Source: an uncultured Candidatus Saccharibacteria bacterium
GTDB taxonomy: Bacteria; Patescibacteriota; Doudnabacteria; UBA920
DNA length: 64,000 bases
Direction: 5' to 3'
Assembly (NCBI GenBank): GCA_964348935.1
Contig: CAYGEJ010000001.1
Coordinates: 51,807-115,806 of the forward strand
A model generated the notes under the pieces. That model worked only from the letters and a program-made list of their open reading frames with translations, did not search any database and was not told the origin of the DNA. Positions 1 to 14,974 of this stretch are shown here, piece by piece. A program made the position numbers and the translations under genes. The first letter of the stretch is position 1; the number at the start of each line of letters is the position of its first letter.

Positions 1-34
1 GGCATATGATTCAAAAGATCTCACTGGAGCTGAA

Positions 35-826
35 ATGACTTGGACAGATGACCATGGACATACTCATATTATTAAAACAGAGTTTATTCCAGCAGAAAAA
101 AAATTCAAAGTTGTTGGTATGGATGATTATATAGCTTTAAGGGATTTTGCGTTAAATTATGCGTCTGCTAACGGATTGAATAAAGAACAAAGAGCTACGC
201 TTATTTCTGATATTGAAAAAAATAATACCCAAGGTACATATGGAGATCAAGCAACTGCCTTCAGACAATCACGCCCTGGGTTTAATCAGGCAAATTATAT
301 TAATGCAATGAAAGATCAGACAAAAATTGTAGAAAAAAATAACAACCTTAGTAAAAAAGGTGATATTGATCAAATTACTCAATGGTGGGAATCTTTAGTT
401 ACAAAAGATGCGACAGGTAATATAAGGTTGGGTAGTTCCGGAAAATATTTATTTACACATTGGAAATCTGGTCACGAATTTGCAGCTACACGTGGTAATT
501 TTGCCGACAAAGTACAAGCTCTAATGATGCCTATGGTGATAAATCACCCTGATATTTTAAAGGAGAATTTAAAAGATGCAATTCTTGAAAATTCTAGAGC
601 AGTAGGAAAACTTATGCCACCAGCAGTTTTGGCAAAAAAAGTCGCAGAAGCAGAGTACAAAACATTAAGAGTTGCATTTATGGCTGCGTTTAGAAATGAA
701 ACAGATTTAAAAAATACCATAAGAGAAGCTGGAGAGTTAGGCGATGGTAGTGAAGCGGATTATATACGTTTAAGTACAGCTCTAAGAACTAAATTAAATG
801 CTCCAGGTGTTTTAGATGAAGAATAA
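35..826 (+). CDS. hypothetical protein at the start of the T4SS-like locus
   Basis: Uninterrupted 263-aa ORF in the same orientation and closely spaced with the downstream VirB4-like genes. No motif I recognise. Confidence 0.4.
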   Translation: MTWTDDHGHTHIIKTEFIPAEKKFKVVGMDDYIALRDFALNYASANGLNKEQRATLISDIEKNNTQGTYGDQATAFRQSRPGFNQANYINAMKDQTKIVEKNNNLSKKGDIDQITQWWESLVTKDATGNIRLGSSGKYLFTHWKSGHEFAATRGNFADKVQALMMPMVINHPDILKENLKDAILENSRAVGKLMPPAVLAKKVAEAEYKTLRVAFMAAFRNETDLKNTIREAGELGDGSEADYIRLSTALRTKLNAPGVLDEE

Positions 827-842
827 TAAAACTTAATTTTTT

Positions 843-2129
843 ATGTTTTTAAGTATACAACAAGTTACAGAAATTATTAAACGATCTAAGTTTAAAAACG
901 ATTTTAAAGAACGACTTTTTTTGATTTTACCTAAACTTGAAAAATATACGTTAACAGGTCTTGGTTTAGAGGTGGATAAAAAAGATAGTCAACTTATTTC
1001 TGGTAAATTGGTTAAAACTTGGGAAGAATATGCTAAAATTATTAAAGAATTTGTAAATAATAATGAAACAGGTAAATCTTTTTTAGAGTTATTATCAGAA
1101 GCGAATGAGACCTTCAACGAAGAAAGAAAAATATTTTTTTTATATTTAGCAATGGATATAAAAAACCTTGTCGTTACTAATAAAGTAAATATTGAGGCTG
1201 AAATATATAATCAAATATTAGAATACGAAATAACTTTGTTTTGGAACTTGCCAAAAGAAGAAGTTTTATTTTTGTTAAAATTTAAAATTTTATTATTAGA
1301 AAGTAAATTTCAATTAGTTGAGAATATAAAGGTGGTAATCTGGTTTAATAGTTGGCACTACGAAAAAGATTTTAGCAAAATATTTACTTCATGCATTACG
1401 CAAAACTTCGAAGTTCTTGGAGGTATAAAAATAAGTAATTGGATTGAGAAGTATTTTAATTTTAGCACATCATCTACATTTAGAAATGATGTCATTCAGG
1501 TCGCTGAATTTTTAGTTAAAGACCCTAGTGTAAATATTTTAAAAGACAATGAAAGAAAAACTCTATCTGAAATACTCAAATTATATATATGGTTACTTAA
1601 GCCTGAAATAAATGAAGAGGAGATTTTGGCCTATAAAGAATTTATACGTCAGCAGAAAATGGATGAATTAAACGTCGGTATTGGAGATTTGGATGAAGAT
1701 GATATTGTGTACATTAACTCTCAACAATTTCAGTTGCCTGAGTTGGCGTTTGAGTCTCAGGTTGTTCCTCCGGTTGTTCCAGTACCCAATAAATCGGTAG
1801 TTGAAAAGCAGTCTAAGATTAAGCTGAATTTTGATGTAGATAAGACTGCAGTCGAATTAAATACCAAACCTGTTAAGATTGACGAAATTTTAAAGAAAAA
1901 AGAGGCTTTAATATCCCCGGGGTTGAGATTTCAGTCTAATGAAGACCAGCAAGCGACTCTTAAGTCCATACAAAGACCAAAAGAGATGTCGAAAGTGGAA
2001 GTGCCTGTTATTGCTCCGAAAAGTATAGATAGTTTTCAACCAAAAGCAGTAGAAATAGCTAAGCAAAACGATTTGGACATTGATAAAAAATTACAAGAGT
2101 TGGAAAAAAGGGTAAAGAATAAAAAATAA
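843..2129 (+). CDS. hypothetical protein
   Basis: 428-aa ORF starting 17 nt after the preceding gene. Acidic, Pro-rich C-terminal half. No recognisable domain. Confidence 0.4.
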   Translation: MFLSIQQVTEIIKRSKFKNDFKERLFLILPKLEKYTLTGLGLEVDKKDSQLISGKLVKTWEEYAKIIKEFVNNNETGKSFLELLSEANETFNEERKIFFLYLAMDIKNLVVTNKVNIEAEIYNQILEYEITLFWNLPKEEVLFLLKFKILLLESKFQLVENIKVVIWFNSWHYEKDFSKIFTSCITQNFEVLGGIKISNWIEKYFNFSTSSTFRNDVIQVAEFLVKDPSVNILKDNERKTLSEILKLYIWLLKPEINEEEILAYKEFIRQQKMDELNVGIGDLDEDDIVYINSQQFQLPELAFESQVVPPVVPVPNKSVVEKQSKIKLNFDVDKTAVELNTKPVKIDEILKKKEALISPGLRFQSNEDQQATLKSIQRPKEMSKVEVPVIAPKSIDSFQPKAVEIAKQNDLDIDKKLQELEKRVKNKK

Positions 2130-3349
2130 TGAATATTGCTCAACTTGAAAAATTAAAGGCACTTATTGCAAGTTCACCCATACTTAATGTTACGGAAAGA
2201 GCGGAATGGTTGGCGCTTTTGGAATTGATGAATGACAAGCAGTTAGGGGAGCTGGAAAAAATTTTATTAGAATATCAGCCAGCTAGTGAAGCTATAAATA
2301 AACCTGTCAGCTCTAAGTCTGTGACAGGTGCGCAAATTTTGCCAAAAAAAGCTGAGCCAAGCCAGCAGGTAAATGGTTTGGTAAATTCGTTAAGCGGTAA
2401 GTCTATAGGTGATTTGGCAGGCGATTTGGCGTTACATAAAGAACCAATTGCTAAATTGGCGCAAACTCAAAGTGCTTCCAAGTCGGCTCCGGTTATGCAA
2501 CTTCCTCATTTGAGTCATATTATGAACTTGCCTAATCATTGGGATGAGAAAAAATCTCAAACGCCTTTAGTTGCTAAGGAAAAGATTGATAAGACTGTTA
2601 AGGGCATTGGTAATAAGCAGAGTTTTGCGAGCAAGTTAAAGTCAATCTTTTTAGAAAAAGAACTGACAACCAGTAAGCCGGAATACCCTTTGGAATTAGC
2701 TGATCGTATGGAATTGGAGGCTCAACCCGTGGCAGTTGAAATTTCGCAAATCGAAACACAAAACAAACCAACTGTGCATTTGCCGGAAGTTGAAGTTAAA
2801 ACCAAAACCGAACCAATTGCAGTGGCTGTGCCGAAGCCAAAAGTTCCGTTGCCGAAGATATCGCTGAAACCTCAAATTATTCCTGAGAAGCCAGTTTGGA
2901 AGCCTATAAAGAAGCCTGATTTTTCACAAGGTAAATTTATTCCGGGAGTTGAATTTAAAGAGGATTCAATTGCTTCCCGTAATGACACACTTGCTAATGT
3001 TAAAAAACATTTGGAAGAAAAAGAAGACTTGCATGAGTCATTAAGACCGTTGAATACTAATGTAAATTTAAATGGTTTAGCAGATTTAAAAAATTTAACA
3101 ATAGATACTGTTGACTCTAGTGATTTAAGCAGTATGGTTAATAAAATTAGACAAATGATTTCGAAATACGGTTTTTTTGAAGTTATTTTCAATCTCGAAG
3201 ACAGTTGGGTTTATAAATCATATCTTGCTACCGGGGTAAAATTAATGTCAGAAAATACCCAGGGAGACGATAATTCACTAGAAAAGGTTATGAATAAATC
3301 GCAATTTGAAAAATTTGCAGATTTGTTGTCAAAAATTCAGTCAGCATAA
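2129..3349 (+). CDS. hypothetical Pro/Lys-rich protein
   Basis: 406-aa ORF whose start overlaps the stop of the previous gene (ATAATG). It has repetitive P-K-P-K stretches. Confidence 0.4.
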   Translation: MNIAQLEKLKALIASSPILNVTERAEWLALLELMNDKQLGELEKILLEYQPASEAINKPVSSKSVTGAQILPKKAEPSQQVNGLVNSLSGKSIGDLAGDLALHKEPIAKLAQTQSASKSAPVMQLPHLSHIMNLPNHWDEKKSQTPLVAKEKIDKTVKGIGNKQSFASKLKSIFLEKELTTSKPEYPLELADRMELEAQPVAVEISQIETQNKPTVHLPEVEVKTKTEPIAVAVPKPKVPLPKISLKPQIIPEKPVWKPIKKPDFSQGKFIPGVEFKEDSIASRNDTLANVKKHLEEKEDLHESLRPLNTNVNLNGLADLKNLTIDTVDSSDLSSMVNKIRQMISKYGFFEVIFNLEDSWVYKSYLATGVKLMSENTQGDDNSLEKVMNKSQFEKFADLLSKIQSA

Positions 3350-3388
3350 ATAAATTTTAAGATTTTTGTGTTATAATAAAAAGAGACT

Positions 3389-3835
3389 ATGCAATTTCCA
3401 GTCCCACAATTTACAGATGTTGAAGATCGAATAATTGGTCCTTTGACGATAAAGCAATTCGGTATTGTTTTTGTGGCAGGTGTTATAGTTTTTCTTGGAT
3501 ATTCGGCTACCAAAAGCATTCTCGTTTTAGTTTTTTTAATAGTATTATTTGGAGTTCCGGCTTTAGCCTTAGCTTTTCTGCCATTTAACGGCAGACCAGT
3601 TTATAACACTTTGGGGAATTTAATGAGATTTATGAATAGTCCAAAGGAATTAATTTTTCATAAAGAAGCCCAGAATTCAAATATAAAAATTGTAAAAGAT
3701 GCTGAAATAACTTCGGTGGCTGAGGTTCAAGCGGAAAATATAAACCCGGTAGATACTAAAGCTAATTTAAAAGAGGTACAAAAATTATTACGTGAGACAG
3801 CCTCAAAGCAAAGAGATGTAATTGGTAGAATGTAG
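3389..3835 (+). CDS. small two-TM membrane protein, possibly a PrgI/VirB3-like T4SS component
   Basis: 148 aa with two adjacent hydrophobic helices (FGIVFVAGVIVFLGY...LVLVFLIVLFGVPALALAFLPF). It sits directly upstream of the VirB4-like ATPase, which is the usual position of VirB3/PrgI-like proteins. Confidence 0.4.
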   Translation: MQFPVPQFTDVEDRIIGPLTIKQFGIVFVAGVIVFLGYSATKSILVLVFLIVLFGVPALALAFLPFNGRPVYNTLGNLMRFMNSPKELIFHKEAQNSNIKIVKDAEITSVAEVQAENINPVDTKANLKEVQKLLRETASKQRDVIGRM

Positions 3836-3889
3836 GACTAAGTTGCGAGTTGCTAATATTTAGTAACTAGCCACTAACAACTAGAGCTT

Positions 3890-4573
3890 ATGAAATTAGA
3901 CATGCAAAATAAAAATAAAACTACCACAAAAAGTACCCAGAGCTTTTTAAGAATATCTGAAATAAAAAATGACACAGTAGTAATGGATGACGGTACGCTA
4001 AGGGCAATAGTGGCTGTTTCAAGTACAAATTTTGATCTTAAAAGTCAAGATGAGCAAAATTCCATAATTTTTAATTTCCAAAGATTTTTGAATTCTTTAG
4101 ATTTTTCTATTCAGATTTTGATGCAAAGTCGAAAAATGGAAATTGGGGGCTATATGGAAAAGTTAAGGCGATTGGCTGAAAAACAGACAAATGAGTTGCT
4201 TCGCGTGCAAACTATTGAATATGTGGAGTTTATAAATAGACTTATTGAAAATGCGAGCATTATGAATAAGAATTTTTATATTATTGTCCCGTTGGGGACT
4301 TCCATATTACCGGTTGCATCTGGTTTTTTCTCGAACTTATTTGGTAATGGTAAAAATAAAGAGATTGCCCAAAAAATAGAGAATTTTGAAAGAGAAAAAG
4401 AAAAATTAGATACCCGAGTTTCCTCTTTATTATCTAACTTATCCGGTATAGGAATAAGGGGGGTTCCTTTAAAAACCGAAGAGATTATTCAATTGTATTA
4501 TAATTCTTATAATTTTGAAGCAGGTCCTCTAATAAACCCGTCGCAACTTAAAGATATTAAGATTAGTGAGTAG
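3890..4573 (+). CDS. VirB4/TrsE-like conjugal ATPase, N-terminal fragment (split gene)
   Basis: 227-aa ORF resembling the N-terminal domain of Gram-positive-type VirB4 (FLRISEIKNDTVVMDDGTLRAIVAVSSTNFDLKSQDEQNSIIFNFQRFLNSL..IQIL). It ends just before the four-helix-bundle gene. The downstream ORF continues with the next conserved VirB4 segment. Confidence 0.55.
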   Translation: MKLDMQNKNKTTTKSTQSFLRISEIKNDTVVMDDGTLRAIVAVSSTNFDLKSQDEQNSIIFNFQRFLNSLDFSIQILMQSRKMEIGGYMEKLRRLAEKQTNELLRVQTIEYVEFINRLIENASIMNKNFYIIVPLGTSILPVASGFFSNLFGNGKNKEIAQKIENFEREKEKLDTRVSSLLSNLSGIGIRGVPLKTEEIIQLYYNSYNFEAGPLINPSQLKDIKISE

Positions 4574-4587
4574 TTACTAGGTGCTAG

Positions 4588-5007
4588 GTGCAAGTGACTA
4601 GTATCAAACAAGCAGATATTAAGTATTTAATGAGTAATTCTATTATGTCGATATCTCATTATAAAGAATTAATAGTTTGGCAAAAATCTATGAATTTAGT
4701 AGATCTAATATATATAATAACTAGACAATTTCCAAAGTCGGAAACTTATGCATTAGCAAGTCAGATGCAAAGGTCAGCAATTTCTATACCTTCTAATATT
4801 GCAGAAGGGCAAGGTAGAAATCATAAAGCAGAATTTGTACACTTTTTAGGTATATCTTTTGGTTCCTCTGCCGAATTAGAAACACAAATTTTAATAGCTA
4901 AAAAACAGTATCCGCTATTAAATTATAATAAAGCTGAGGATTTATTAGTAGAAGTACAAAAAATGTTATCAGTTTTAATTAATCGTTTACTAGTCACTAA
5001 CAACTAG
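4588..5007 (+). CDS. four helix bundle protein (23S rRNA intervening-sequence protein family)
   Basis: 139 aa with the family signature (ELIVWQKSMNLVDLIYIITRQFPKSETYALASQMQRSAISIPSNIAEGQGR...FLGISFGSSAELETQILIA), as I recall this family. Located between the two VirB4 fragments. Confidence 0.8.
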   Translation: MQVTSIKQADIKYLMSNSIMSISHYKELIVWQKSMNLVDLIYIITRQFPKSETYALASQMQRSAISIPSNIAEGQGRNHKAEFVHFLGISFGSSAELETQILIAKKQYPLLNYNKAEDLLVEVQKMLSVLINRLLVTNN

Positions 5008-5024
5008 AAACTAGCAACTAACTC

Positions 5025-6872
5025 ATGGCTATATTTGGCACAATTGATGAGCAGGAATTAAAAGAGAAGCGAGAAGCTTTGAACGAAGCTGAGAAAGAAA
5101 GAGATTTAAGCTCTAGTCTTGGAGATTTGGAAAAAACCTACAAGGAAGGTTTGACTACTCTAAAAGACCTTATTGCTCCTGCTTCGCTTAAATTTAATAG
5201 TTCTAACTTTGAACTTAACGGTAAGTTTGGTCGTAGTTTTTTTGTGCTGGCATATCCGCGATTTCTTTCTACCAATTGGTTGTCTTTTATTATTCAAGCC
5301 GAAGGTGCATTGGATTTGTCCATGTTTATATATCCGATTGAGTCTGCGGATATCTTAAAAAAATTGAAGTCAAAAGTCGGGGAATTGGGATCCCAAATGT
5401 CCATAAATCAATCTAAGGGAATGGTTCGCGACCCAATGCTGGAAACGGCGTATAAGGATGTTGAAGGTTTGCGTGATAACTTAATGCAGGGTACGGAAAA
5501 GTATTTTCGATTTGCTTTGTATTTTACAATTTATGCAAATGACCTAAAAGAGTTAGACAAATTTTCTTCAACGTTGGAAAGTTCTTTGGGGTCAAAATTA
5601 GTGGTTACTAAACGAGCTTTATTGCAAACTCAAAATGGGTTGAATTCCACTTTGCCTTTAGGTTTAGATGAACTGGATGTTGCTAGTAATATGAATACCA
5701 GCCCACTTTCTAGCTGCTTCCCCTTTGTTTCCTCGGACTTGAGTAGTAATGACGGAGTTCTTTATGGTATAAATAGGCATAACAATAGTCTAATCCTATT
5801 TGACCGCTTTGCAATGGAAAATGCTAATTCAGTAGTATTTGCCAAATCCGGTGCTGGGAAGTCTTACGCGGTAAAATTAGAGGTTTTGAGGGCCTTAATG
5901 GTGGGGACGGAAGTAATTATTGTTGACCCGGAAAATGAATATCAGCATTTAGCGTCTGCTGTGGGCGGTACTTATTTAAGCGTTTCTTTAAATTCACCTT
6001 CCAGAATTAACCCGTTTGATTTACCGGTAGCTATTGAAGGAGAAGATAATACCGATGTACTTAGAAGTTCGGTTATTAATTTACTTGGATTGTTTAGTTT
6101 AATGCTTGGAAAATTAAACCCGACTGAAGAAGCATTAATGGATAAAGCTATTTGGCAGACTTATGCGAAAAAAGATATTACTCCTCAGCTTGCAGATTTT
6201 CGTGGAGTGGAATATCCGACGATGAATGATTTGGTGGAGATTCTAAATGGTATGGTTGGGGCGGAAAGTTTGGCTCAGAGAATGACAAAATATACGGAAG
6301 GGACTTTTGCCGGGTTGTTAAACCAGCAGACCAATGTCGTTTTAAATAATCAGCTGGTAGTGTTTTCTATTCGCGACCTGGAAGAGGAGTTGCGACCTAT
6401 TTCTATGTACATTATTTTGAATTATATTTGGAATATTGTTCGATCAGAACTTAAAAAGCGTATACTTGTTGTGGATGAAGCTTGGATTTTAATGCAGCAT
6501 GAAGATAGTGCGCGTTTCTTGTTTGGTATAGCCAAGCGTGCTCGAAAATATTATTTAGGATTAACCACAATAACTCAAGATGTCGCAGATTTTTTAGCCT
6601 CGCCTTACGGTAAGCCAATTGTGACAAACTCCTCTATACAGCTTTTACTTAAGCAAAGCCCCGCAGCTATTAATGTAATTGCAGAAACTTTTTTTCTTAC
6701 AGAAGGTGAAAAATATTTGCTTTTGGAAAGCGAAGTTGGAGAAGGGATTTTCTTTGCAGGTTTAAAACACGCGGCGATTAAGATTTATGCGTCTTATGTT
6801 GAAGACCAGATTATTACCACGGATCCAAAACAGTTGTTGGAAATTCAGGATAGCCAGGATAAACTTGGTTAA
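5025..6872 (+). CDS. virB4: VirB4/TrbE/TraC-like type IV secretion ATPase (C-terminal ATPase part)
   Basis: Walker A FAKSGAGKSYAV, Walker B ILVVDEAWIL and the conserved VirB4 N-proximal segment (GKFGRSFFVLAYPRFLSTNWLSFII...DLSMFIYPIE). 615 aa. Confidence 0.8.
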   Translation: MAIFGTIDEQELKEKREALNEAEKERDLSSSLGDLEKTYKEGLTTLKDLIAPASLKFNSSNFELNGKFGRSFFVLAYPRFLSTNWLSFIIQAEGALDLSMFIYPIESADILKKLKSKVGELGSQMSINQSKGMVRDPMLETAYKDVEGLRDNLMQGTEKYFRFALYFTIYANDLKELDKFSSTLESSLGSKLVVTKRALLQTQNGLNSTLPLGLDELDVASNMNTSPLSSCFPFVSSDLSSNDGVLYGINRHNNSLILFDRFAMENANSVVFAKSGAGKSYAVKLEVLRALMVGTEVIIVDPENEYQHLASAVGGTYLSVSLNSPSRINPFDLPVAIEGEDNTDVLRSSVINLLGLFSLMLGKLNPTEEALMDKAIWQTYAKKDITPQLADFRGVEYPTMNDLVEILNGMVGAESLAQRMTKYTEGTFAGLLNQQTNVVLNNQLVVFSIRDLEEELRPISMYIILNYIWNIVRSELKKRILVVDEAWILMQHEDSARFLFGIAKRARKYYLGLTTITQDVADFLASPYGKPIVTNSSIQLLLKQSPAAINVIAETFFLTEGEKYLLLESEVGEGIFFAGLKHAAIKIYASYVEDQIITTDPKQLLEIQDSQDKLG

Positions 6873-6958
6873 ATATTTTACAGAAACTATAACCATAACA
6901 ATAACGCGAAATAGGTAGCTGTTATAGTTGTGGTTATTATTTATAGGTAGGATTTTTT

Positions 6959-9454
6959 ATGGCAGATGACCTGGTAGATGAATTAAATACTGACAGCTCT
7001 AGTTCTCCGACGGCACAAGATGTGGACGCTTTGTCAAGCGAACAGGTGTCTTCTAATACGGTTAAAGTTAGAGAGCTTTTTAAAACCGGGAATACTGACA
7101 GAATTATTTATGATATTTCCACAGATGGTAAACCAAAACGTACTTCCGGCTGGAGAATTCATGACAATAGCCAGGTAGAAATTTCAGGAAGCGGACTTGG
7201 AGTTTATGATCAGGTTGTTTTGTGGATAAGTGGTAGTCCTTTTTATCATAAAAATTTAGGAGGTCGTGAACAAGGGCGGTTGTTAACTTTTCAGGTTGAA
7301 GATTTAAGTAATTTGTACAGTGAAGGTACTCCGGTTGAAATTCAATTTGTTGATTCTAAAAATCCGGAAAATAGTAGATTTTTACAGCAGAAATTTACTT
7401 ATGTACAAGCAAAAACCGATGAAGAACAAGCGAAAAAAAGTCCGGAAGATGTAGAGAACGCAAGATTAGAACGACAAAAAGAGGATGCAAAAATAAATGG
7501 CCCAATGTCTGTGATGATGGACGGTATGGGGCAAGCTATTGGAGGTGTTGGTGGTGTACTACCCAGCAGTGCCAATAAAGATATTAGACCAAAAGGAAAT
7601 ATAGAAAATAATCAAGCAGTTCCTGCTAAGAGTAGTCTTTCTCAGAATGTGGAAGAAGGTGATTCTATAGATACTGAAGAGAATTTAAGTGTAGATGGTG
7701 AGGTTGTAAATTCATCTACCAATGTATCGGATGATAGAGTTCCGATTAGTGAAATGGGAACTGTGAAAAAATCTGATATTTCCCAGGATTCTTCCACTAC
7801 GGTTACAGAGAGTAGTACTCAAAAAACTTCAGGGAATTTGGAATCATCCAGAACAGTAAAAGGTGGGGGTAAGTTAAATGGGGCTGGGTCAGTGAATGCG
7901 ACAGATGACGGAGCTGTGAGCTTGGGTGTTAAATCTCAAGTTTTGGAGACAGGAAATGATGGGGTGGTAGAAAAAGAACCAACACCACCAAATGCTATTG
8001 TGTCAGGTAAAGCTGAAAGTTCGACTCAAGAAAAACTTGATGTATTCGGAACAAGTCAAGTTTCGGAACAAGAACAAGCAAATTTTTCGGCTAATGGAAA
8101 CATTGGAACCTCTAAACAAAAAAAAGCTTCAGAGTTAAAGTCAAAAACTCAAACAGGAATAAGTTCTAGTACTAAGGGGCGAGTACAGGCTTCAGCTTCG
8201 AACCAGCAATTGAATACAGATGATTCAAGACCACAGGCAAGCACTATGTCTAGTGCTAATGCCACTGCACAAGCAAAGCCTTTAAAACCTCCTGCTGGAC
8301 TAGGAGCGATGAAGTCGCTTGAAATAAATTTAAACAAGACTTTGGGTGTGCCTCTAGGAGTTGGAAGTGCTCCCGGAGTATTAAATAAGCCTAGTGAAAT
8401 TACTAAAAGTAGTAATCAGCCTGAAACCAAGAATCAACCTACGACAGAATTGGAAGGTGAAACTATAAATCTTCAGGGGGTTGAAAGTGGACAGGGTTTA
8501 GAGGTTGGTGGTTTAGCCGAACCAGTAGTTCCTCATGAAGGTCAAGAAAAAAAACCGGATGTTGGTTTGGTCTTGAGTAAATCCGACAGAGCTGGTAGCG
8601 AGCCATTTAGACCAAAAACTGGAGTGGAGTCAAGAGGGAAGTCATTTGGTTCAGAAAGGCCTATTGGCGATTTAAACAGACGAACTGAGCCGGATGTTAT
8701 ATTAAATAAAAAGCTCAAGAATAATGAAGATTTGTCATTTGGTGAAAGGAGTTTGGGAATGTCGGCAAGACCGGCAGGTCCAGATGTTGCAGGTGGCGCT
8801 TCTGTCGGTGCGGAAACACAAGATCCGGTAGAGAGTGGAAAAAAGGATGGTGGTGAAACTCAGGATAGCGAGGAGGAGGCAGAAGAGGAAAATCTGGGTT
8901 TACAGCCAGTTATACCGGAAGAGGTAATGCCTGATCCAAGTACAAGCAAGGCGGACGCCTCGAAAGAGGATGTTGCTGACAAGGCTTTAAGTGTTATAGC
9001 AGATAGTAAAGCTGGAAAAGAATTGGTAGGTCAGGCCGTAAGTGAATTTTGGTGGTGGGGATTTGGTATTTCATCCGCTTCATTATTTATTGGTTTGGAT
9101 TTTTTAGCCGGTGCGGTAATAATGAATGTTTATTGGTGGAGACATAGAAAACAGCCAGAGCTTTTACCTATGAAAGGCTGGCAAAAAGTTGTTACAGTTT
9201 TTGCCAGTGTATTTCCTTTTTTTGTTATAACCTTTTTATTGGGATTATTTATGATAGTAGGATGTAATTATCCAATTCTTGGTAAGTATTCAAAATTAGT
9301 GAGTTATAAAACAACAGTCGTGGGAGCATTTATAGGGGAAGATTGTAAATATTTTGATATTACAAGTAGTTCCGAGCTAGATGGCACAGAGAATAACACA
9401 AATCCCCAAAATTTAACCCCTAATCCTTTAAATCCAAGGGGAGTGTCACCTTAG
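6959..9454 (+). CDS. large low-complexity (Ser/Thr/Gly-rich) protein with a C-terminal multi-TM anchor
   Basis: 831-aa ORF. Long disordered S/T/G/E-rich region, then hydrophobic helices near the C-terminus (FWWWGFGISSASLFIGLDFLAGAVIMNVYWW ... VFPFFVITFLLGLFMIVG). Immediately downstream of VirB4, so it may be a T4SS-associated surface or channel protein. Confidence 0.5.
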   Translation: MADDLVDELNTDSSSSPTAQDVDALSSEQVSSNTVKVRELFKTGNTDRIIYDISTDGKPKRTSGWRIHDNSQVEISGSGLGVYDQVVLWISGSPFYHKNLGGREQGRLLTFQVEDLSNLYSEGTPVEIQFVDSKNPENSRFLQQKFTYVQAKTDEEQAKKSPEDVENARLERQKEDAKINGPMSVMMDGMGQAIGGVGGVLPSSANKDIRPKGNIENNQAVPAKSSLSQNVEEGDSIDTEENLSVDGEVVNSSTNVSDDRVPISEMGTVKKSDISQDSSTTVTESSTQKTSGNLESSRTVKGGGKLNGAGSVNATDDGAVSLGVKSQVLETGNDGVVEKEPTPPNAIVSGKAESSTQEKLDVFGTSQVSEQEQANFSANGNIGTSKQKKASELKSKTQTGISSSTKGRVQASASNQQLNTDDSRPQASTMSSANATAQAKPLKPPAGLGAMKSLEINLNKTLGVPLGVGSAPGVLNKPSEITKSSNQPETKNQPTTELEGETINLQGVESGQGLEVGGLAEPVVPHEGQEKKPDVGLVLSKSDRAGSEPFRPKTGVESRGKSFGSERPIGDLNRRTEPDVILNKKLKNNEDLSFGERSLGMSARPAGPDVAGGASVGAETQDPVESGKKDGGETQDSEEEAEEENLGLQPVIPEEVMPDPSTSKADASKEDVADKALSVIADSKAGKELVGQAVSEFWWWGFGISSASLFIGLDFLAGAVIMNVYWWRHRKQPELLPMKGWQKVVTVFASVFPFFVITFLLGLFMIVGCNYPILGKYSKLVSYKTTVVGAFIGEDCKYFDITSSSELDGTENNTNPQNLTPNPLNPRGVSP

Positions 9455-9549
9455 TAAAAAATTAAATTTGGAGTTTTTACAAAACAGTGATATAATAAAT
9501 AAAAGATGTATTTATTCGACACCAAAATAAACAGATTTAATTTATAAAT

Positions 9550-10704
9550 ATGAATAAAAAAGCTATTGCTATATTAGGCGCTATTTTTTTGCTGATCGTT
9601 GGTACACTAGGATTTTTAATATATTCCAAATATTCAGTAAAAGATAACACCACTACTACAAATTCTAGCACTACTACACCGGATAGCGGAATTATTGGGG
9701 ATCCTGTTGAAAATCCGGACACTATAATTCCGGAGACTCCAACAGACTCTGTTGTTAAATTAACAGAATCGGAAGTAGTATCACCGGCTTTATTTTTTGA
9801 CGGTAGCGGAATAACTTATTTTGATATTCAGGGTAATTTGTTTCAGTCAGTAATACAAAATGATAATGGTAAAGTTTCCTTAACTGGTAAAAAGCAGTTG
9901 GATATTCCTCAAAAGCAAAATATTACCAAAGTCCTTTGGCCAGCCAAAGGTAGTGATTTTATTGTCGAGTTTAAAGGTTCAACTGGGAAGAGATTGTTTA
10001 GTTATTTTAACAGTGTTACTCAGCTTTATACTGATTTGCCAGAACAGGTATATAGCCTTGATTGGATGCCTAATGGCAATCAGATTATGTACACCTGGTT
10101 GGAAAACAATAAATCTACTTTGAATTTGAGTGATGGTGATACAAAAAATTGGAAATATTTGGCTGATATGTGGGAAAATGATGACGCTTTAGCAATTTCT
10201 CCAGACGGTACTCAGTTGATTTATTACGAAACAGAAAATACCGGAACCAGTAATCCTATTAATTCTGTGACCAGTGACGGTAAGATTTGGAAGACTTTGG
10301 TGAAAACTGGACAAAATATTGGCGCGCTTTGGAGTCCGGACGGACAAAAGTTTTTATTTGCCAAAAAAGATTTAACTTCATTAAAGTATCAGTTGTGGGT
10401 TTATAATTTAACCTCCGAAGAAGTTAAAAATTTAGGATTTTTTTCTACCCCTGAAAAAGCAGTGTGGGATAAAGATAGTAATGTAGTTTATGTTAGTGTG
10501 CCAAGTTTAAATACTTCTTCTAACGAGGTATTGACCCAAGATTCGTTCTTCAGAATGGATACTACCACTCTTGAGAAGAAAGAATATACTTCTTCAAGTA
10601 TGACCTTGGACGGTAGGAATTTGTTTTTAAATTCAACCAGTGATAAGTTATTTTTTAAAAATGCACAAGATGGTGCTTTATATTATCTTGATTTGACGAA
10701 GTAG
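9550..10704 (+). CDS. TolB-like / PD40 beta-propeller repeat protein with an N-terminal TM anchor
   Basis: N-terminal helix AIAILGAIFLLIVGTLGFLIY. Repeated motifs typical of PD40/WD40-like propellers (LDWMPNGNQIMYTW, ISPDGTQLIYYE, WSPDGQKFLFAKKD). Confidence 0.55.
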   Translation: MNKKAIAILGAIFLLIVGTLGFLIYSKYSVKDNTTTTNSSTTTPDSGIIGDPVENPDTIIPETPTDSVVKLTESEVVSPALFFDGSGITYFDIQGNLFQSVIQNDNGKVSLTGKKQLDIPQKQNITKVLWPAKGSDFIVEFKGSTGKRLFSYFNSVTQLYTDLPEQVYSLDWMPNGNQIMYTWLENNKSTLNLSDGDTKNWKYLADMWENDDALAISPDGTQLIYYETENTGTSNPINSVTSDGKIWKTLVKTGQNIGALWSPDGQKFLFAKKDLTSLKYQLWVYNLTSEEVKNLGFFSTPEKAVWDKDSNVVYVSVPSLNTSSNEVLTQDSFFRMDTTTLEKKEYTSSSMTLDGRNLFLNSTSDKLFFKNAQDGALYYLDLTK

Positions 10705-10792
10705 ATTATTAGTAATCAATTGACAGAATTTATCAAAATTGACAGAATTACTTAAGAGTTCTGTCAATTTTTTAATTTTTTGGTGAGTATAT

Positions 10793-12124
10793 ATGGTTAA
10801 ATCTCAATTAGTATTTATATGTAGTAACTGTCAATTTAAAGCCACCCGTTGGCAGGGGAAGTGCCCAGAATGTGGGCAGTGGAATTCTTTTGAAGAACAA
10901 AGGGTTACTATAACTGGAAAAAAAGGGTTCACAGGAATTGCTTCAAAATCTGTTGAGTTATCTGGGGTTGAGTTGTTAAATCATGCAAGAGTAAAAACCG
11001 GAATAGGAGAGTTTGATGAGGTCATTGGTTCAGGAATTGTGCCTGGAAGCTTAATATTGCTCGGTGGTGACCCGGGAATTGGAAAATCTACACTTGCCCT
11101 ACAACTTTCCATGCAAGTAAAAGCGGACGTGTTGTACGTCTCAGGAGAAGAATCGGTTAACCAAATTAAACTTCGAGCGAATAGATTGAATAAAAATCAT
11201 CAGTTGAATGTTTTGGCTGAAACCGATTTGCAAAGCGTACTTGCGAATGTAGATAGTCAAAAACCTGAATTGGTAATTATAGACTCAATTCAAACTATGT
11301 ATAGTGAAGAGGCGAGTGGTGTGGCTGGGGGAGTTGCTCAAGTGACTTTTGCTGTTCAGCAAATTATGCGTATGGCAAAACAAAACCATATTTCTTTTAT
11401 TGTAATTGGGCACGTAACAAAAGAAGGCTACTTAGCTGGCCCAAAAACTTTGGAACATATGGTAGACACAGTTTTGTATTTAGAAGGTGAGCGCTTTGCT
11501 TCTTTTAGAATTTTACGTTGTGTTAAAAACCGCTTTGGTACCACCAACGAAGTTGGAGTGTTTGAAATGCAAGGTGAAGGTTTGGTGGAAGTTAAAAATC
11601 CTTCCCAATTATTTTTAGGTGAAGATAGTATAAAAGCTTCTGGAAATGTTATAACTGCAGTCCAAGAGGGAAGCCGGGCATTGCTTTTAGAAATTCAAGC
11701 GCTTACCTCAATTAGTAATTTTGGTTACCCTAAAAGAACTACCGCTGGTTTTGATTCTAACCGTTTACAGTTGTTAACCGCTATTCTTGCTAAGCGCGCG
11801 GGACTTAACCTTTCTAACCAGGATATTTATATTAATGTAGTAGGTGGAATAAAAATAGAAGAGCCAACCGCAGACTTGGCCGTGGCTTTGGCTATTTATT
11901 CTAGTCTTAAAGATATTATTATTAGTGATACTGTAGTTATAGGTGAGCTTGGGCTTTCTGGTGAGGTTAGGTATGTTTCTAATTTAGAAAAAAGAATAAA
12001 AGAAGCAAGTAAGCTTGGGTTTAAAAAAGTAATTTGTCCAAAAAATAAACTGACCTTAAAAATTCCGGGAGTGGAAATTGTAGGTGTAAAAACTTTAAGC
12101 GAAGCTATTAAAAATATTTCATAA
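10793..12124 (+). CDS. radA: DNA repair protein RadA/Sms
   Basis: N-terminal C4 zinc finger (CSNCQFKATRWQGKCPECGQW), Walker A GGDPGIGKSTL, KNRFG motif and a Lon-like C-terminal domain. 443 aa. Confidence 0.9.
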   Translation: MVKSQLVFICSNCQFKATRWQGKCPECGQWNSFEEQRVTITGKKGFTGIASKSVELSGVELLNHARVKTGIGEFDEVIGSGIVPGSLILLGGDPGIGKSTLALQLSMQVKADVLYVSGEESVNQIKLRANRLNKNHQLNVLAETDLQSVLANVDSQKPELVIIDSIQTMYSEEASGVAGGVAQVTFAVQQIMRMAKQNHISFIVIGHVTKEGYLAGPKTLEHMVDTVLYLEGERFASFRILRCVKNRFGTTNEVGVFEMQGEGLVEVKNPSQLFLGEDSIKASGNVITAVQEGSRALLLEIQALTSISNFGYPKRTTAGFDSNRLQLLTAILAKRAGLNLSNQDIYINVVGGIKIEEPTADLAVALAIYSSLKDIIISDTVVIGELGLSGEVRYVSNLEKRIKEASKLGFKKVICPKNKLTLKIPGVEIVGVKTLSEAIKNIS

Positions 12125-12130
12125 ATAAAA

Positions 12131-12189
12131 GGGCGGGAAATGTCTACGACTTGCAGGTGTACGTAGATCAATTCTCGCCCTTTGTTTGG
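12131..12189. terminator. bidirectional intrinsic terminator (nested hairpin followed by a U-run on both strands)
   Basis: GGGCGGGA...UCUACG-loop-CGUAGA...UCUCGCCC followed by UUUGUUU on the + strand and UUUUAUUUAU on the - strand. Sits right after the radA stop and at the 3' end of the minus-strand peptide transcript. Confidence 0.5.
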
Positions 12190-12300
12190 AGCCCCATGAC
12201 CCCACTAAAGACTACCTGTCCGGGAAGTGGTTGGTTCCACTTCTCAGGCCTGGCAAACTGTGCCAGAGTCTCAAGTGAGAAAACGGTTCTGGGTTCTTGG

Positions 12301-12495
12301 TTATACAGGCATCAGGCCTGTCGTTTGGAAGACACTGAGACTACCTTTCTTCTCCGGTTTGGAGATTTTTTGAAAAGGTTCATGGCACATACTGCATTTT
12401 TGTGCCGCAATTGGCTGTAATATTCCACAGCACCAAGTTTCAGGTGGTCCCGTTTGAAGAACCTTTTTTGGTTCAGTCTCGGGTTTATTCTTCAT
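12301..12495 (-). CDS. small Cys/His-rich peptide (64 aa) with a zinc-ribbon-like CC..CxxCH motif
   Basis: ATG preceded by UAAGGAGCAACUACC. Sequence MKNKPETEPKKVLQTGPPETWCCGILQPIAAQKCSMCHEPFQ... The C-S-M-C-H-E-P-F segment is reminiscent of the CSxCHPF zinc motif of ribosomal protein L31, but the overall match is weak. Lies in a GC-enriched intergenic island. Confidence 0.45.
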   Translation of the reverse strand: MKNKPETEPKKVLQTGPPETWCCGILQPIAAQKCSMCHEPFQKISKPEKKGSLSVFQTTGLMPV

Positions 12496-12578
12496 GGTAG
12501 TTGCTCCTTAATTGATACCGATATGGCAATCGGCTGTCTATACCAGAAGGCAATCCGGCACAGACCTAACAAATCCCC

Positions 12579-12622
12579 CTGAAGATTTCATTTATTATAC
12601 TGAAATCTTCAGAAATGTCAAT
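12579..12622 (-). promoter_or_regulatory. consensus sigma70 promoter (TTGACA-N16-TATAAT) with the -10 hexamer inside a 12-bp inverted repeat, a putative operator
   Basis: Minus strand reads aTTGACAtttctgaagatttcagTATAATaaatgaaatcttcag. Arms CTGAAGATTTCA / TGAAATCTTCAG flank the -10. The -35 begins 2 nt after the recG stop codon. Confidence 0.4.
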
Positions 12623-12625
12623 CTA

Positions 12626-14689
12626 CTATTCAAAATGTATAATTTTTCCTTCGATTTTCTTTGCAAGTAGTAGGAAGTTTTTTAAGTTTATATCCACACT
12701 TATTATTTTTATGGCTTCCTCGCGGGCAATAGGAATTAAAGAAGTGTATGCAGGGGAGAAGTATTTAAAATTCCAACCAGATTGTTTGAAGCCATAAAGG
12801 TCGCCAAAGCCTCTTTGTTTTAAGTCTAGCTCGGCAAGCGCAAAACCGTCGGTGGTTTTACTAAAATCTTCCAGGCGTTTTTTGGTAAGTAAATATTGTT
12901 CTTCGTTGTTTATACCAACAGTTTCAGACATAAACAAAAAACAATAACTTTGATGCTCAGCTCTACCCACACGACCACGGAATTGGTGTAGTTGAGCAAG
13001 TCCAAAACGCTCAGCTCCTTCAATAAGCATGACCGATGCATTGGGGACGTCTACCCCAACTTCTACTACAGAAGTAGAAACTAGAATGTGAATTTTTCCA
13101 GCCAAAAAGTCCGCCATAACTTGGTCTTTATCTGCACTACGCATTTTTCCATGTAAGAGCCCAACGTTTAAACCTTTAAAAATTTTTTGCAAGGTCTCGT
13201 GCTCAGCTTTAGCAGACTTAATTTGTAAGCTTTCATTTTCTTCTATTAGTGGAGTTATTACAAAGGCTTGTCTGCCTTGTTTAATTTGTTCAGAAATAAA
13301 ATTATAAGCCTCGGTTCTTGAGTTTGGTTCTACTAAAAAAGTAGAAATAGCTTTTCTGCCCTGTGGTTTAGTTTTTATTTGGGAAATATCCAGTTCGCCA
13401 TAATAGGCAAGTTGTAGTGTTCTTGGAATGGGTGTGGCGGTAAGTGAGAGTAAATGCGGGACGCGACCTGTATTTTGCAAAAGAGAAGAGCGTTGCTCTA
13501 CGCCTAGCCTGTGTTGTTCGTCTATGGTTACCAGAGCTAATTTTTTAAATTTTACTTTGTCTGCAATTAAAGCATGGGTACCAAAATAAATACCAGGCAT
13601 TCCTTCAGCAAGGAGCGCCTGAAGTTTTTTCTTTAAAATTACTTCGCCGTTTAATTTACACTCTTTACTTGTAATTAAAGCTATAGTTACATCTTTAAAA
13701 TATTTTTGAGCAGAGGCGTAATGTTGTTTGGCAAGTATTTCTGTTGGAGCTAGGAACGCTGTCTGAAGTTCTTCTTTAGCGGTTTCTAAACTGGCAATAA
13801 AAGCTACCAGAGTTTTTCCGCTTCCAACATCACCCTCAACTAAACGATTCATAGGGGTATTTTTTTCAATATCTTTTAAAATATCCCAACTGGCTTGTTT
13901 TTGGGCTGGAGTGAGTTGGAAAGGCAGGCTGTCTACAAAGGATTTGACTAAATCTTTATTAAACTTAATTTTATAACTTTGTCTTAAGGCAAGTTCCTTT
14001 TTGTGCTTTTGGGCAAGTAGTTGATTTATAAATATTTCTTCAAACGCCAGCCTGGTTTTAGCTCGGTCTACCTCTTCCAGTTGTTTTGGGAAATGGCTAA
14101 TGTTAATTGTTTTTGAAATTGTTAGTAAATTGTATTTTTTTAAAATATCTTCAGGGATAATTTCTTCGACCTCGGTTGCTAATGAAAGTATGTTATTTAT
14201 TAAGTTTCTTAGCGTTTTTGGGTAGAGTCCTTCAGTCATGTGATAAATTGGGACAAGGCGGGCTGTGTGAAGCGGGAAATCGGAAATTTTTTCGTATATG
14301 GGATTGGTTAGTTGGAGTTGGTTGGCGTAATATTCCGGTGTACCGGACAGGTAGAGTTGGTCGCCTGGCTTTAGACTTTTGGCTAAGTAGGGTTGGTTGA
14401 ACCAAATAATTTTCAAAGCCCCGGTAGTGTCGAATACCTGGGCTTCTGCAAGTGATATATAACTTTTAAAAGATTTTCTACTCCCTATGCTTTTTAGCGT
14501 AACGGCTATAGTAGCCGGTTGTTCAGGGATTAGTTCTTGAATTTTTTTAGTGATTGAAAAATCTAAATATCTAAACGGAAAGTATAACAAAAGATCTCGG
14601 ACTGTTAAAATTCCGAGTTTTTTTAAAGCCGCAATTTGCGGCTTTGTAATTTTAGGAAGTACTTGAATTGGCGAGTTTATATTTAGCAT
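12626..14689 (-). CDS. recG: ATP-dependent DNA helicase RecG
   Basis: Wedge/helicase architecture. GDVGSGKT Walker A, DEQHRLGV (DEQH box), QFRGRVGR motif. 687 aa. Confidence 0.9.
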   Translation of the reverse strand: MLNINSPIQVLPKITKPQIAALKKLGILTVRDLLLYFPFRYLDFSITKKIQELIPEQPATIAVTLKSIGSRKSFKSYISLAEAQVFDTTGALKIIWFNQPYLAKSLKPGDQLYLSGTPEYYANQLQLTNPIYEKISDFPLHTARLVPIYHMTEGLYPKTLRNLINNILSLATEVEEIIPEDILKKYNLLTISKTINISHFPKQLEEVDRAKTRLAFEEIFINQLLAQKHKKELALRQSYKIKFNKDLVKSFVDSLPFQLTPAQKQASWDILKDIEKNTPMNRLVEGDVGSGKTLVAFIASLETAKEELQTAFLAPTEILAKQHYASAQKYFKDVTIALITSKECKLNGEVILKKKLQALLAEGMPGIYFGTHALIADKVKFKKLALVTIDEQHRLGVEQRSSLLQNTGRVPHLLSLTATPIPRTLQLAYYGELDISQIKTKPQGRKAISTFLVEPNSRTEAYNFISEQIKQGRQAFVITPLIEENESLQIKSAKAEHETLQKIFKGLNVGLLHGKMRSADKDQVMADFLAGKIHILVSTSVVEVGVDVPNASVMLIEGAERFGLAQLHQFRGRVGRAEHQSYCFLFMSETVGINNEEQYLLTKKRLEDFSKTTDGFALAELDLKQRGFGDLYGFKQSGWNFKYFSPAYTSLIPIAREEAIKIISVDINLKNFLLLAKKIEGKIIHFE

Positions 14690-14774
14690 TTAAACTCTAT
14701 TAAAATAAAGATTCCTTGCAGTAAGAGAGGGGGTGTATTAACTTCCTGGTTTGAGTCTATCAATAAAGACGTAT

Positions 14775-14954: not shown

Positions 14955-14974
14955 TTTTGTTTTTCACAAAATTT

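Follow-up and report, generated by a model that had tools for sequence, protein, structure and literature searches.

Nearly all CPR bacteria (Patescibacteria) carry a chromosomal T4SS cluster of the kind considered here. These bacteria are unable to make nucleotides, amino acids or lipids. To our knowledge, the function of a T4SS in Patescibacteria has been shown only within the Saccharibacteria, and in none of the Doudnabacteria; nor do we know of any CPR system for which DNA import has been demonstrated.

The closest described systems are, of course, those of other Patescibacteria. Here, TrsD, PrgI and VirB6 are encoded beside VirB4, TrsD being its most abundant partner and PrgI/VirB3 and VirB6 lying near virB4; the VirB4 clade is nested within MPF-FATA, and relaxases are nearly absent from the loci (Quinonero-Coronel et al., 2025; PMC12102498). 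VirB2-like pilins are often, though not universally, encoded near virB4, and VirB8-like genes are rare in CPR, being found mostly in the class ABY1. In that class, comF, recG and radA lie near the T4SS, and functional coordination has been suggested (PMC12102498). In the Saccharibacterium Southlakia epibionticum, the sole CPR species that has been genetically tested, the T4SS (SEML1_0006-0019) is essential but ComEC is not; neither a coupling protein nor a relaxase could be recognised for this T4SS (Wang et al., 2023; PMC10633639). As to what such systems move, speculation has included the import of DNA or other macromolecules and the delivery of effectors (PMC12102498; PMC11665869; PMC10633639). 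Both this kind of system and its closeness to radA, recG and comF have been on record since 2025, and much of what follows is therefore ordinary. The exceptions are a pair of lineage-specific proteins and a short inserted cassette that carries a gene.

The window analysed here is a stretch of 64,000 nucleotides whose taxonomic source is Candidatus Doudnabacteria; 80 related loci were collected for comparison. With a probability of about 0.85, and judging by sequence comparison, positions 2-10704 would form the downstream portion of a chromosomal locus, inherited vertically, that encodes a Patescibacteria-clade T4SS related to the conjugation machinery of the Gram-positive MPF-FATA class. Like the described Patescibacteria systems, this one is chromosomal, has VirB4 with an adjacent TrsD together with PrgI/VirB3 and VirB6, lacks a nearby relaxase or T4CP, and has radA, recG and comF nearby, as in ABY1. 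It differs from them in that neither an array of VirB2-like pilins nor a VirB1-like hydrolase was found in the stretch examined, and in that a VirB8-like gene, present in 12 relatives, is absent. Further, two soluble proteins restricted to Doudnabacteria stand between VirB6 and VirB3, a four-helix-bundle cassette sits between trsD and virB4, the last gene encodes a PD40 propeller, and no GC-skew switch occurs near the locus within the window. The ORFs listed in the initial annotation all exist at the positions given there, and its identifications of PrgI, VirB4, RadA, RecG, ComFC, RecX and the dCMP deaminase are confirmed.

The PrgI/VirB3-like protein (3389-3835, forward strand) has two hydrophobic (TM) segments and matches PF12666 (E=3.6e-11; 43.9 bits, cut-off 27); its gene is found in 74 related loci. 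It is followed by a TrsD-like protein (3890-4573, forward), which corresponds to a separately encoded N-terminal domain of VirB4. This is indicated by matches to NCBIfam VirB4_plasma (positions 95-233, E=4e-8) and TrsD/TraD (NF041427, E=7e-6), and by a precomputed match to PF26593 (TraC-like). The VirB4 ATPase proper (5025-6872, forward) comprises the linker and the C-terminal ATPase domain, with intact Walker A (AKSGAGKS) and Walker B (ILVVDE) motifs. It matches PDB 4AG5 (E=8e-46), and its best-scoring curated model is NCBIfam conju_CD1110 (358.5 bits, cut-off 325), from the CD1110-family VirB4 of the CTn2-type ICEs of Clostridioides, which are MPF-FATA. The profile and PDB matches place the affinity of the ATPase, as far as sequence goes, with that class. 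CD1110 itself is a single protein of 752 aa, whereas here its model is spread over two polypeptides, with positions 5-135 on the TrsD-like protein and 176-728 on VirB4.

A two-polypeptide arrangement of this kind is familiar from the Gram-positive Trs system of pGO1/pSK41 and the Tra system of pIP501, where the order TrsC-TrsD-TrsE is the same succession of VirB3-like protein, TrsD and shortened VirB4 ATPase (the NF041427 match). Those systems, however, are carried on plasmids and are conjugative, and they include VirB8-like proteins and a VirB1 hydrolase as well as a relaxase and a T4CP (TrsK/TraJ). The present locus is chromosomal, and no genes of these four kinds were found.

A VirB4 that lies in two ORFs with a foreign gene between them, at a locus without relaxase or T4CP, might be taken as the decaying remnant of an integrated conjugative element, the split and the insertion being signs of pseudogenisation. 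The conservation data effectively refute this, and we consider it extremely improbable. Wherever both parts could be located in a related locus, in 78 of 78 cases, TrsD and VirB4 are two adjacent ORFs. The arrangement is ancestral and has stayed intact across 59-93% identity; in the relatives, the stop codon of one and the start codon of the other usually overlap or are closely spaced. The arrangement equals the known pairing of TrsD with TrsE (PMC12102498), the ATPase motifs are intact, and no integrase or repeats bound the locus, whose chromosomal position is fixed between the same flanks in about 80 species. An intron or intein splitting VirB4 was also considered and rejected: no Rfam match was obtained at gathering thresholds, and the halves have their own stop and start in 78/78 loci, most of them free of any insert.

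At the left edge of the window, the initial annotation had listed 35-826 as an ORF of its own. Its reading frame is open from base 2, and positions 2-826 (forward) hold only the 3' end, the last 274 codons, of a gene that begins upstream. In a 1053-aa protein on another contig of the same genome (L083:4043-7204), the 274 C-terminal residues are identical to this tail. That protein has an N-terminal TM and five strongly predicted TM segments in residues 272-546, making at least six in all, and is best described as an extended, polytopic VirB6/TrbL-like membrane protein. This assignment rests on its orthologues, 22 of 26 of which are matched by Pfam TrbL/VirB6 (PF04610; best E=2.6e-9); the copy in this genome falls below threshold (E=0.067). 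A VirB6 component is, then, easily missed where the edge of a contig or window cuts its gene.

Between virB6 and virB3 always lie the genes for two soluble proteins, B_843 (843-2129, forward) and C_2129 (2129-3349, forward), in which helical domains are joined by long Pro-rich linkers. In B_843, an all-alpha domain (residues 1-280) is joined by a disordered Pro-rich linker to a C-terminal helix. C_2129 has an N-terminal three-helix domain, a disordered Pro-rich linker of about 230 aa and a C-terminal helical domain; its AF2 model has pLDDT above 90 at residues 1-50 and 310-406. Its gene is directly upstream of prgI in 66 related loci, and the family is rare, with 471 cluster representatives among 1.84 billion. 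Profile searches of C_2129 against Pfam and NCBIfam gave no family match, and no PDB match was significant. Neither protein, both of which had been proposed for structure comparison, has detectable fold relatives.

This narrows what had been proposed for the neighbourhood of VirB4. The statement that the flanking genes lack recognisable domains holds for 843-2129 and 2129-3349, but not for 3890-4573, which is TrsD/TraC-like, nor for 4588-5007, which matches PF05635. Likewise, five uncharacterised ORFs had been offered as candidate structural components. One is the VirB6 tail; another, 6959-9454, is conserved in position although highly variable in length and sequence; and a fifth, left unnamed, would be TrsD if 3890-4573 was meant and the inserted cassette gene if 4588-5007 was. 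Only B_843 and C_2129 remain as conserved uncharacterised proteins.

The gene order recurs in about 80 Doudnabacteria species as (P266)-P616-VirB6L-B_843-C_2129-PrgI-TrsD-VirB4-TM protein-(VirB8-like)-PD40-RadA-RecG(-). This synteny shows that the cluster is no chance arrangement, and that Doudnabacteria keep a fixed version of the T4SS, with 12-13 genes, that includes two conserved proteins without fold relatives. No relaxase or coupling protein (T4CP) was seen by eye or with Pfam among window ORFs of at least 125 aa, nor in 7 kb upstream; more generally, the features of a conjugative element (relaxase, T4CP, oriT, integrase or attachment repeats) were not found for the window locus. No VirB2-like pilin was recognised by Pfam, a search less sensitive than the pilin profiles of PMC12102498: Pfam matched nothing in P149, a small protein encoded upstream, nor was a small two-TM ORF recognised in the locus. 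The VirB8-like protein of the 12 relatives (about 180 aa) resembles Pfam VirB8 (E=0.024), TcpC and NTF2, all below cut-off, and an HMM built from it finds nothing in the 64-kb window.

Downstream of virB4 lies the gene for a membrane protein that is conserved in position and highly variable in length, here 831 aa (6959-9454, forward). Its N-terminal region, read by eye, is beta-rich; a stretch of about 500 aa has low hydrophobicity and is rich in S, G, E and K; and TM segments are predicted at residues 704-722 and 751-769. The earlier description of a disordered protein with a C-terminal TM bundle thus fits the low-hydrophobicity region, while the bundle amounts to just these two segments. Profile searches of Pfam and NCBIfam gave no family match. 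The slot is filled in every related locus, by proteins of 137-1218 aa in which the predicted hydrophobic segments number from one to six, most often two to four; conservation is confined to the N- and C-terminal parts, and to close relatives.

The last conserved gene of the cluster (9550-10704, forward), found in 71 related loci, encodes a beta-propeller with an N-terminal TM. A single PD40 repeat is significant (PF07676, E=1.4e-7), which bears out the propeller of the initial annotation, but its TolB-like character does not follow: the TolB model gives 33.8 bits against a cut-off of 343, and the protein has an N-terminal membrane anchor. A TolB orthologue of a Tol-Pal system was rejected on that score, and because no tol or pal genes are neighbours and the protein is membrane-anchored in a monoderm.

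By homology, VirB4 hexamers would dock via TrsD and VirB3 onto VirB6, and the docked complex would form an ATP-driven translocon in a single membrane. Because no relaxase or coupling protein is nearby and the position in the core genome is fixed, the system would be no conjugation machine. It would rather serve the host-dependent lifestyle, like the homologous system of Southlakia. In this respect the earlier proposal of a CPR-type VirB4 locus distinct from conjugation systems stands, with PrgI, TrsD, VirB4 and a VirB6-like protein present in a fixed position in about 80 species.

The Doudnabacteria locus adds no evidence as to the substrate. Import of host nucleic acid is placed first, tentatively and at well under even odds; export of effector proteins comes next, as a possibility; a pilus or adhesion function only comes third, and is unlikely. 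On the ground that coupling protein and relaxase are missing, Wang et al. lean towards protein export or some other role (PMC10633639), and effector delivery is among the speculations in PMC11665869. The system might, on this reading, export effectors or toxins or build a surface structure that attaches to the host bacterium and manipulates it, the variable 831-aa protein and the propeller being surface or contact parts and B_843 and C_2129 being substrates or chaperones. The latter two lack signal peptides and TM segments and have long disordered linkers, and the protein encoded after VirB4 changes very rapidly in both length and sequence, a frequent trait of host-contact proteins. Yet neither an effector-like domain nor a secretion signal was identified, the locus yielded no VirB2-like pilin, and a signal peptide is missing from the long N-terminal part of the 831-aa protein, whose location is uncertain as a result. 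We hold this reading to be possible, at well under even odds.

The import of nucleic acid has precedents in the ComB system of H. pylori and the archaeal Ced system, both cited in PMC12102498 and PMC11665869. ComB and the crenarchaeal Ced share with the present locus a VirB4-type ATPase with membrane partners and the lack of a relaxase. ComB, however, has the outer-membrane parts VirB7-10, and Ced has CedA/A1/A2; specific homology to either was not detected here, and VirB4 matches the CedB model weakly (E=1e-10; 41 bits, cut-off 700).

A stronger form of the import reading makes the VirB4 locus a competence machine that takes up DNA, forming one toolkit with RadA, RecG, ComFC, RecX and the dCMP deaminase, which would process host or environmental DNA. 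This we doubt. The initial annotation rightly reported the genes: radA (10793-12124, forward; Pfam KaiC-type ATPase, AAA_25, ChlI, Lon_C and zinc-ribbon), recG (12626-14689, reverse; NCBIfam RecG, 764.7 bits), comFC (19406-20137, reverse), recX (22864-23367) and the deaminase gene (52075-52608). The PD40-RadA-RecG adjacency is kept in nearly all of the roughly 80 Doudnabacteria loci, to which it extends the proximity of radA and recG reported for ABY1, where comF is near the T4SS as well (PMC12102498). The dispensability of ComEC for growth in Southlakia (PMC10633639) means, in turn, that another nucleotide route is needed.

The link between these genes and the T4SS is nevertheless weak. RadA, RecG, RecX and ComFC are widespread, near-universal housekeeping genes of recombination and repair. 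Between the propeller gene and radA stands a perfect 13-bp hairpin followed by a T-run (10735-10771, forward; fold z=-3.1), overlapping a promoter-like TTGACA box at 10720; it is a probable terminator separating the T4SS genes from radA, which is probably a separate transcription unit. The recG gene is convergent with radA, and comFC lies 12.5 kb past the end of virB4, on the opposite strand, with tRNA genes and a sigma factor in between. The deaminase, counted earlier as a ComEB-type uptake part, belongs instead to dTTP synthesis, its gene sitting in a thymidylate-synthesis cluster with dUTPase, Tmk, ThyA and DHFR. Of the core competence genes, ComEC, ComEA, DprA and those of a type IV (pseudo)pilus are missing among window ORFs of at least 125 aa, ComFC alone being present. 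Finally, the two most distant loci (L077 and L082; VirB4 identity 59-63%) lack the PD40-RadA-RecG adjacency, for which reason this synteny may be phylogenetic inertia. RadA, RecG, ComFC, RecX and the deaminase are neighbouring housekeeping genes, and no demonstrated parts of the machine.

More specific still, and quite unlikely, is the suggestion that the T4SS imports host nucleic acid with B_843 and C_2129 replacing the missing coupling protein; at the complex of VirB4, TrsD and VirB6 they would take up the entering strand and pass it to RadA, RecG and ComFC. B_843, C_2129, the extended VirB6 tail and the PD40 propeller are candidates for interaction modelling and biochemistry.

The junction of trsD and virB4 holds a 450-bp cassette (4571-5020, forward) in which inverted-repeat arms (4571-4603 and 4988-5020) enclose a gene for a four-helix-bundle protein. 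The ORF is listed as 4588-5007, with a true start, read directly from the sequence, that is probably the ATG at 4630 or 4645; the protein matches PF05635 (E=6e-35) and TIGR02436. The arms are the longest inverted repeat in positions 1-16000 of the window (33 nt, 82% complementary), and they pair in both MFE and centroid RNA folds (z=-3.4). For the cassette alone, the closest match is the intervening sequence (IVS) of 23S rRNA with its four-helix-bundle ORF, which has the same protein family and long complementary arms closing a stem around the ORF. The IVS, however, sits inside an rRNA gene, whereas the present cassette has protein-coding genes of one operon on both sides. A diversity-generating retroelement, with an Avd-like gene beside a hypervariable protein, was rejected: there is no RT ORF, and the direct repeats are only short chance matches. 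The bAvd match of the cassette protein is itself sub-threshold (33.7 bits, cut-off 40). The insert is missing from most related species; it was inserted secondarily and damaged neither gene, although it could impair the expression of virB4. Relatives may have a PDDEXK_3 (GxxExxY) gene at this position instead. IVS-like, stem-bracketed cassettes of a single gene repeatedly occupy intergenic junctions of the T4SS operon. Their recurrence suggests that CPR genomes contain a little-described class of small elements, mobile or RNA-processed, which may be of wider interest.

The Patescibacteria have been surveyed for T4SS genes. VirB4 was found in 2417 of 3035 genomes, and most of these proteins group in one monophyletic clade within MPF-FATA (Quinonero-Coronel et al., 2025, PMC12102498). 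The commonest component encoded beside virB4 is TrsD; PrgI/VirB3 and VirB6 also lie near, VirB2-like pilins are frequent, and relaxases are nearly absent (PMC12102498). The locus in this window matches that system and is, therefore, another instance of it; the main inference to be drawn is already a published hypothesis. What is new here is a gene set specific to Doudnabacteria, an adjacency of radA and recG to the T4SS locus, published for ABY1 and now extended to ~80 Doudnabacteria species, and the correction of the initial annotation. That annotation stands in part. Its ORFs are all present where it placed them and its domain identities hold, but its readings of ORF 35-826, of a TM bundle, of a TolB-like protein, and of the context of a deaminase gene do not.

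Gene order was compared across relatives in a scan that took one genome per species. This gave 80 loci with VirB4 identities of 59-93%, whose record titles read Candidatus Doudnabacteria, uncultured Candidatus Saccharibacteria, Patescibacteria group bacterium, or bacterium. Mapping used tblastn and iterative HMM searches over 3562 ORFs. The conserved order begins with three proteins of 149 (not always), 266, and 616 aa (P149, P266, and P616), and continues with a VirB6-like protein, the products of ORFs 843-2129 and 2129-3349 (B_843 and C_2129, plus strand), PrgI, TrsD, and VirB4. After VirB4 come a variable TM protein, in some loci a VirB8-like protein of ~180 aa, a PD40 propeller, and RadA, followed on the minus strand by RecG and then a 157-aa membrane protein. 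B_843 is found in 59 loci and C_2129 in 66, both counts being limited by flank length. The two most distant loci (L077 and L082) lack the radA/recG adjacency; neither has B_843, and L082 has no C_2129 either.

Two components are confirmed by Pfam and NCBIfam. The PrgI/VirB3 protein (3389-3835) matches PF12666 (E=3.6e-11), and the VirB4 ATPase (5025-6872) scores 358.5 bits against the 325-bit cut-off of NCBIfam conju_CD1110, over model positions 176-728. The ATPase retains its Walker A (AKSGAGKS) and Walker B (ILVVDE) motifs, and its closest solved structure is the C-terminal domain of Thermoanaerobacter VirB4 (4AG5, E=8e-46). The N-terminal part of VirB4 is matched by a different ORF, 3890-4573, which aligns to positions 95-233 of VirB4_plasma (E=4e-8) and positions 5-135 of the CD1110 model. 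This ORF also matches the TrsD/TraD family (E=7e-6), and has a precomputed match to the TraC-like PF26593.

A VirB4 in two pieces might be read as a pseudogene, as a gene split by an intron or intein, or as part of a decaying ICE. The relatives decide otherwise. Both TrsD and VirB4 could be placed in 78 loci, and in every one each has an ORF of its own, with stop and start codons overlapping or no more than 40 nt apart in most of them; the split is therefore ancestral in the lineage, and not a sign of decay. It equals the published pairing of TrsD with VirB4 (PMC12102498), which disposes of the pseudogene and, together with the lack of any Rfam match, of the intron or intein. Conservation across related loci makes a decaying ICE very unlikely. 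The arrangement PrgI-TrsD-VirB4 is that of TrsC-TrsD-TrsE in Gram-positive systems of the pGO1 type.

The VirB6 of this system appeared to be missing. The initial annotation had treated ORF 35-826 as a gene, but its reading frame is open from base 2, making it the 3' part of a longer one. On a contig of the same organism that reaches upstream of the window (L083), its product forms the C-terminal 274 residues of a protein of 1053 aa, whose tail is identical. The full protein consists of an N-terminal anchor, a region outside the cell, five or more additional TM segments (residues 272-546), and a long tail on the cytoplasmic side. Its own match to Pfam TrbL/VirB6 is sub-threshold (E=0.067, profile positions 20-212 of 215). 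TrbL is matched, however, by 22 of its 26 orthologues (best E=2.6e-9), and the missing VirB6 is therefore the gene cut by the window edge. The 274-aa tail as query found no homologues, and the family profile gave only low-complexity noise against PDB sequences.

Upstream of the VirB6-like gene on the same contig (L083:704-3798) lie the genes for P149, P266, and P616. The first two proteins are predicted to be N-terminally anchored, and the third to be secreted. None has a family match; at least 33 relatives have P616, and 16 have P266. All three probably belong to the same T4SS locus.

No TM segment or signal peptide is predicted in B_843 or C_2129. Neither has a match in Pfam, NCBIfam, or PDB sequences, and their family profiles returned only low-complexity noise from the PDB. 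Their database homologues are unnamed or hypothetical proteins lacking Pfam domains, and those with an organism named all come from Doudnabacteria. In the AlphaFold2 model of B_843, an all-alpha domain of ~280 residues (pLDDT 65-94) is joined through a disordered linker to a terminal helix. C_2129 is modeled with a confident three-helix domain at its N-terminus (1-50) and a confident helical domain at its C-terminus (310-406), separated by a low-confidence, Pro-rich linker of ~230 residues. With only 471 cluster representatives among 1.84 billion in an exhaustive HMM search, mostly full-length matches, the C_2129 family is small, and it is restricted to the lineage. The constant position of both genes between virB6 and virB3 makes it plausible that their products are system-specific partners, perhaps adaptors, scaffolds, or substrates.

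Downstream of virB4, ORF 6959-9454 encodes an 831-aa protein that has no match in Pfam or NCBIfam. The C-terminal TM bundle once ascribed to it reduces to two predicted TM segments. In relatives the protein in this slot always has hydrophobic segments, as a rule two to four; it ranges from 137 to 1218 aa, and is conserved only at its termini and only among close relatives. The protein after it (9550-10704), formerly called TolB-like, is a membrane-anchored PD40-repeat protein that falls far under the TolB cut-off. Doudnabacteria are a class separate from ABY1 in GTDB. In 12 relatives (e.g. L007:14910-15455) an N-terminally anchored protein of ~180 aa stands between the variable TM protein and the propeller, with matches to Pfam VirB8 (E=0.024), TcpC, and NTF2 that are all below cut-off; in Patescibacteria at large, VirB8 is found almost only in ABY1 (PMC12102498). 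The ~180-aa protein is absent from the window and from several close relatives, and the VirB8-like component is therefore either dispensable or replaced.

By homology, VirB4 hexamers, aided by TrsD and anchored by VirB3/PrgI, would power a VirB6-based channel in a single membrane. Conjugation is argued against by the lack of a relaxase or coupling protein in the window, by the fixed position in the core genome, and by the intactness of the genes. The role proposed for the Patescibacteria system is import of DNA or other macromolecules (PMC12102498). In Southlakia, a homologous cluster without recognizable coupling or relaxase proteins is essential (Wang et al., 2023, PMC10633639), and ComEC is cited as dispensable from the same work (in PMC11665869 and PMC12857230); the role of the Saccharibacteria T4SS has been termed "completely unknown" (PMC11665869).

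Import of nucleic acid is given here roughly one chance in three. The RadA and RecG identities hold, and the conserved adjacency of their genes to the locus modestly favors nucleic acid as the substrate. Against a coupling to the T4SS, the propeller gene is separated from radA by a perfect 13-bp hairpin followed by a T-run (10735-10771), and by a TTGACA box, recG is convergent, comFC is distant and on the opposite strand, and all three are housekeeping genes. The initial interpretation, of a DNA-uptake machine, is supported as to a T4SS locus of the published CPR type, but only weakly as to a competence context: ComFC, RecX, and dCMP deaminase are indeed encoded elsewhere in the window, but no genes for ComEC, ComEA, DprA, a pilus, a relaxase, or a coupling protein occur among its ORFs of at least 125 aa. 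Export of effectors is only slightly less likely than import of nucleic acid, and a purely adhesive or pilus role is improbable.

The deaminase, counted earlier as a competence gene, heads a cluster for dTTP synthesis (52075-56271), where it is followed by genes for a kinase-like protein, dUTPase, a second kinase-like protein, thymidylate kinase (Tmk), thymidylate synthase (ThyA), and DHFR. Judged from its genes, the organism converts pyrimidine deoxynucleotides into one another and salvages them, a capacity relevant to the use of any acquired nucleic acid.

A 450-bp insert (4571-5020, plus strand) occupies the trsD|virB4 junction. Its ORF (4588-5007) encodes a four-helix-bundle "23S rRNA intervening sequence protein" (PF05635, E=6e-35; TIGR02436). 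Enclosing this gene is the longest inverted repeat of the first 16 kb (arms 4571-4603 and 4988-5020, 33 nt, 82% complementary), which begins at the stop codon of trsD and ends 5 nt short of the start of virB4. The arms are paired in both the MFE and centroid predicted RNA structures (z=-3.4). The architecture is that of 23S rRNA intervening sequences; unlike these, however, the cassette sits between two protein genes. A DGR, with an Avd-like gene beside a hypervariable protein, was considered and rejected, there being no RT and no TR/VR pair.

Relatives, among them L005-L012, L016, L027, L028, L034, and L041, differ at this junction, which may be empty, or hold a PF05635 gene, a PDDEXK_3 "GxxExxY" gene, or apparent ORF-less repeat remnants. 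The PF05635 genes found there are very divergent from one another, and junction content varies even among species with VirB4 at least 90% identical. In 10 of the 13 cassettes at the junction, the flank duplex exceeds shuffled controls in stability by a wide margin (z -2.3 to -9.4). Cassette-type genes up to 10 kb from virB4 number 35, of which 34 point the same way as the operon. These features suggest that the element is small and either mobile or processed as RNA, and that the junction is a hot spot for it. No description of operon-borne cassettes of this kind was found in the searchable literature, where PF05635, TIGR02436, and GxxExxY appeared only in rRNA-IVS and DGR contexts. In L007, the recG frame (18638-21145, minus strand) is 835 aa long and is hit by the GxxExxY (PDDEXK_3) HMM. 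This could reflect a cassette gene fused with recG or continuing into its frame, or else an artefact of taking the most distant start codon for each ORF.

Directly before the trsD start (3866-3904) stands a sequence, ACTAG[C/T]CACTAACAACTAG, that recurs in the cassette's right arm (4989-5027), with 18 of 19 positions identical. The same CTAG-rich motif therefore precedes both trsD and virB4; it may act as a signal for translation or processing, or be what is left of a cassette. CTAG occurs in the genome at about half its expected frequency (105 vs 212). A hairpin in the PrgI-trsD spacer, tried as an ORF-less remnant, is not significant (z=-1.2). Between virB4 and the gene for the 831-aa protein is a strong hairpin (6870-6960, fold z=-5.3) made of the short oligomers ACTATAACCATAACAATAAC / GTTATAGTTGTGGTTAT in repeat. 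It may serve as an attenuator or terminator, or may be related to the cassette arms but without an ORF.

The other genes of the window are ordinary bacterial housekeeping genes (ClpB-like, SecA, GatA/B, MiaA, ProS, MreBCD, PBP2, NusG, L11, L1, RF2, FtsEX, and PyrG). GC content is low (31-41%), and GC skew is positive throughout. One slightly GC-richer stretch (~40%; 31361-32879, minus strand) encodes a 301-aa protein that carries a PEP-CTERM sorting motif at its C-terminus (E=1e-5), adjoining an odd, Arg-rich ORF of 212 aa. Because PEP-CTERM/exosortase systems are typical of diderm bacteria, such a motif is unexpected in a CPR genome.
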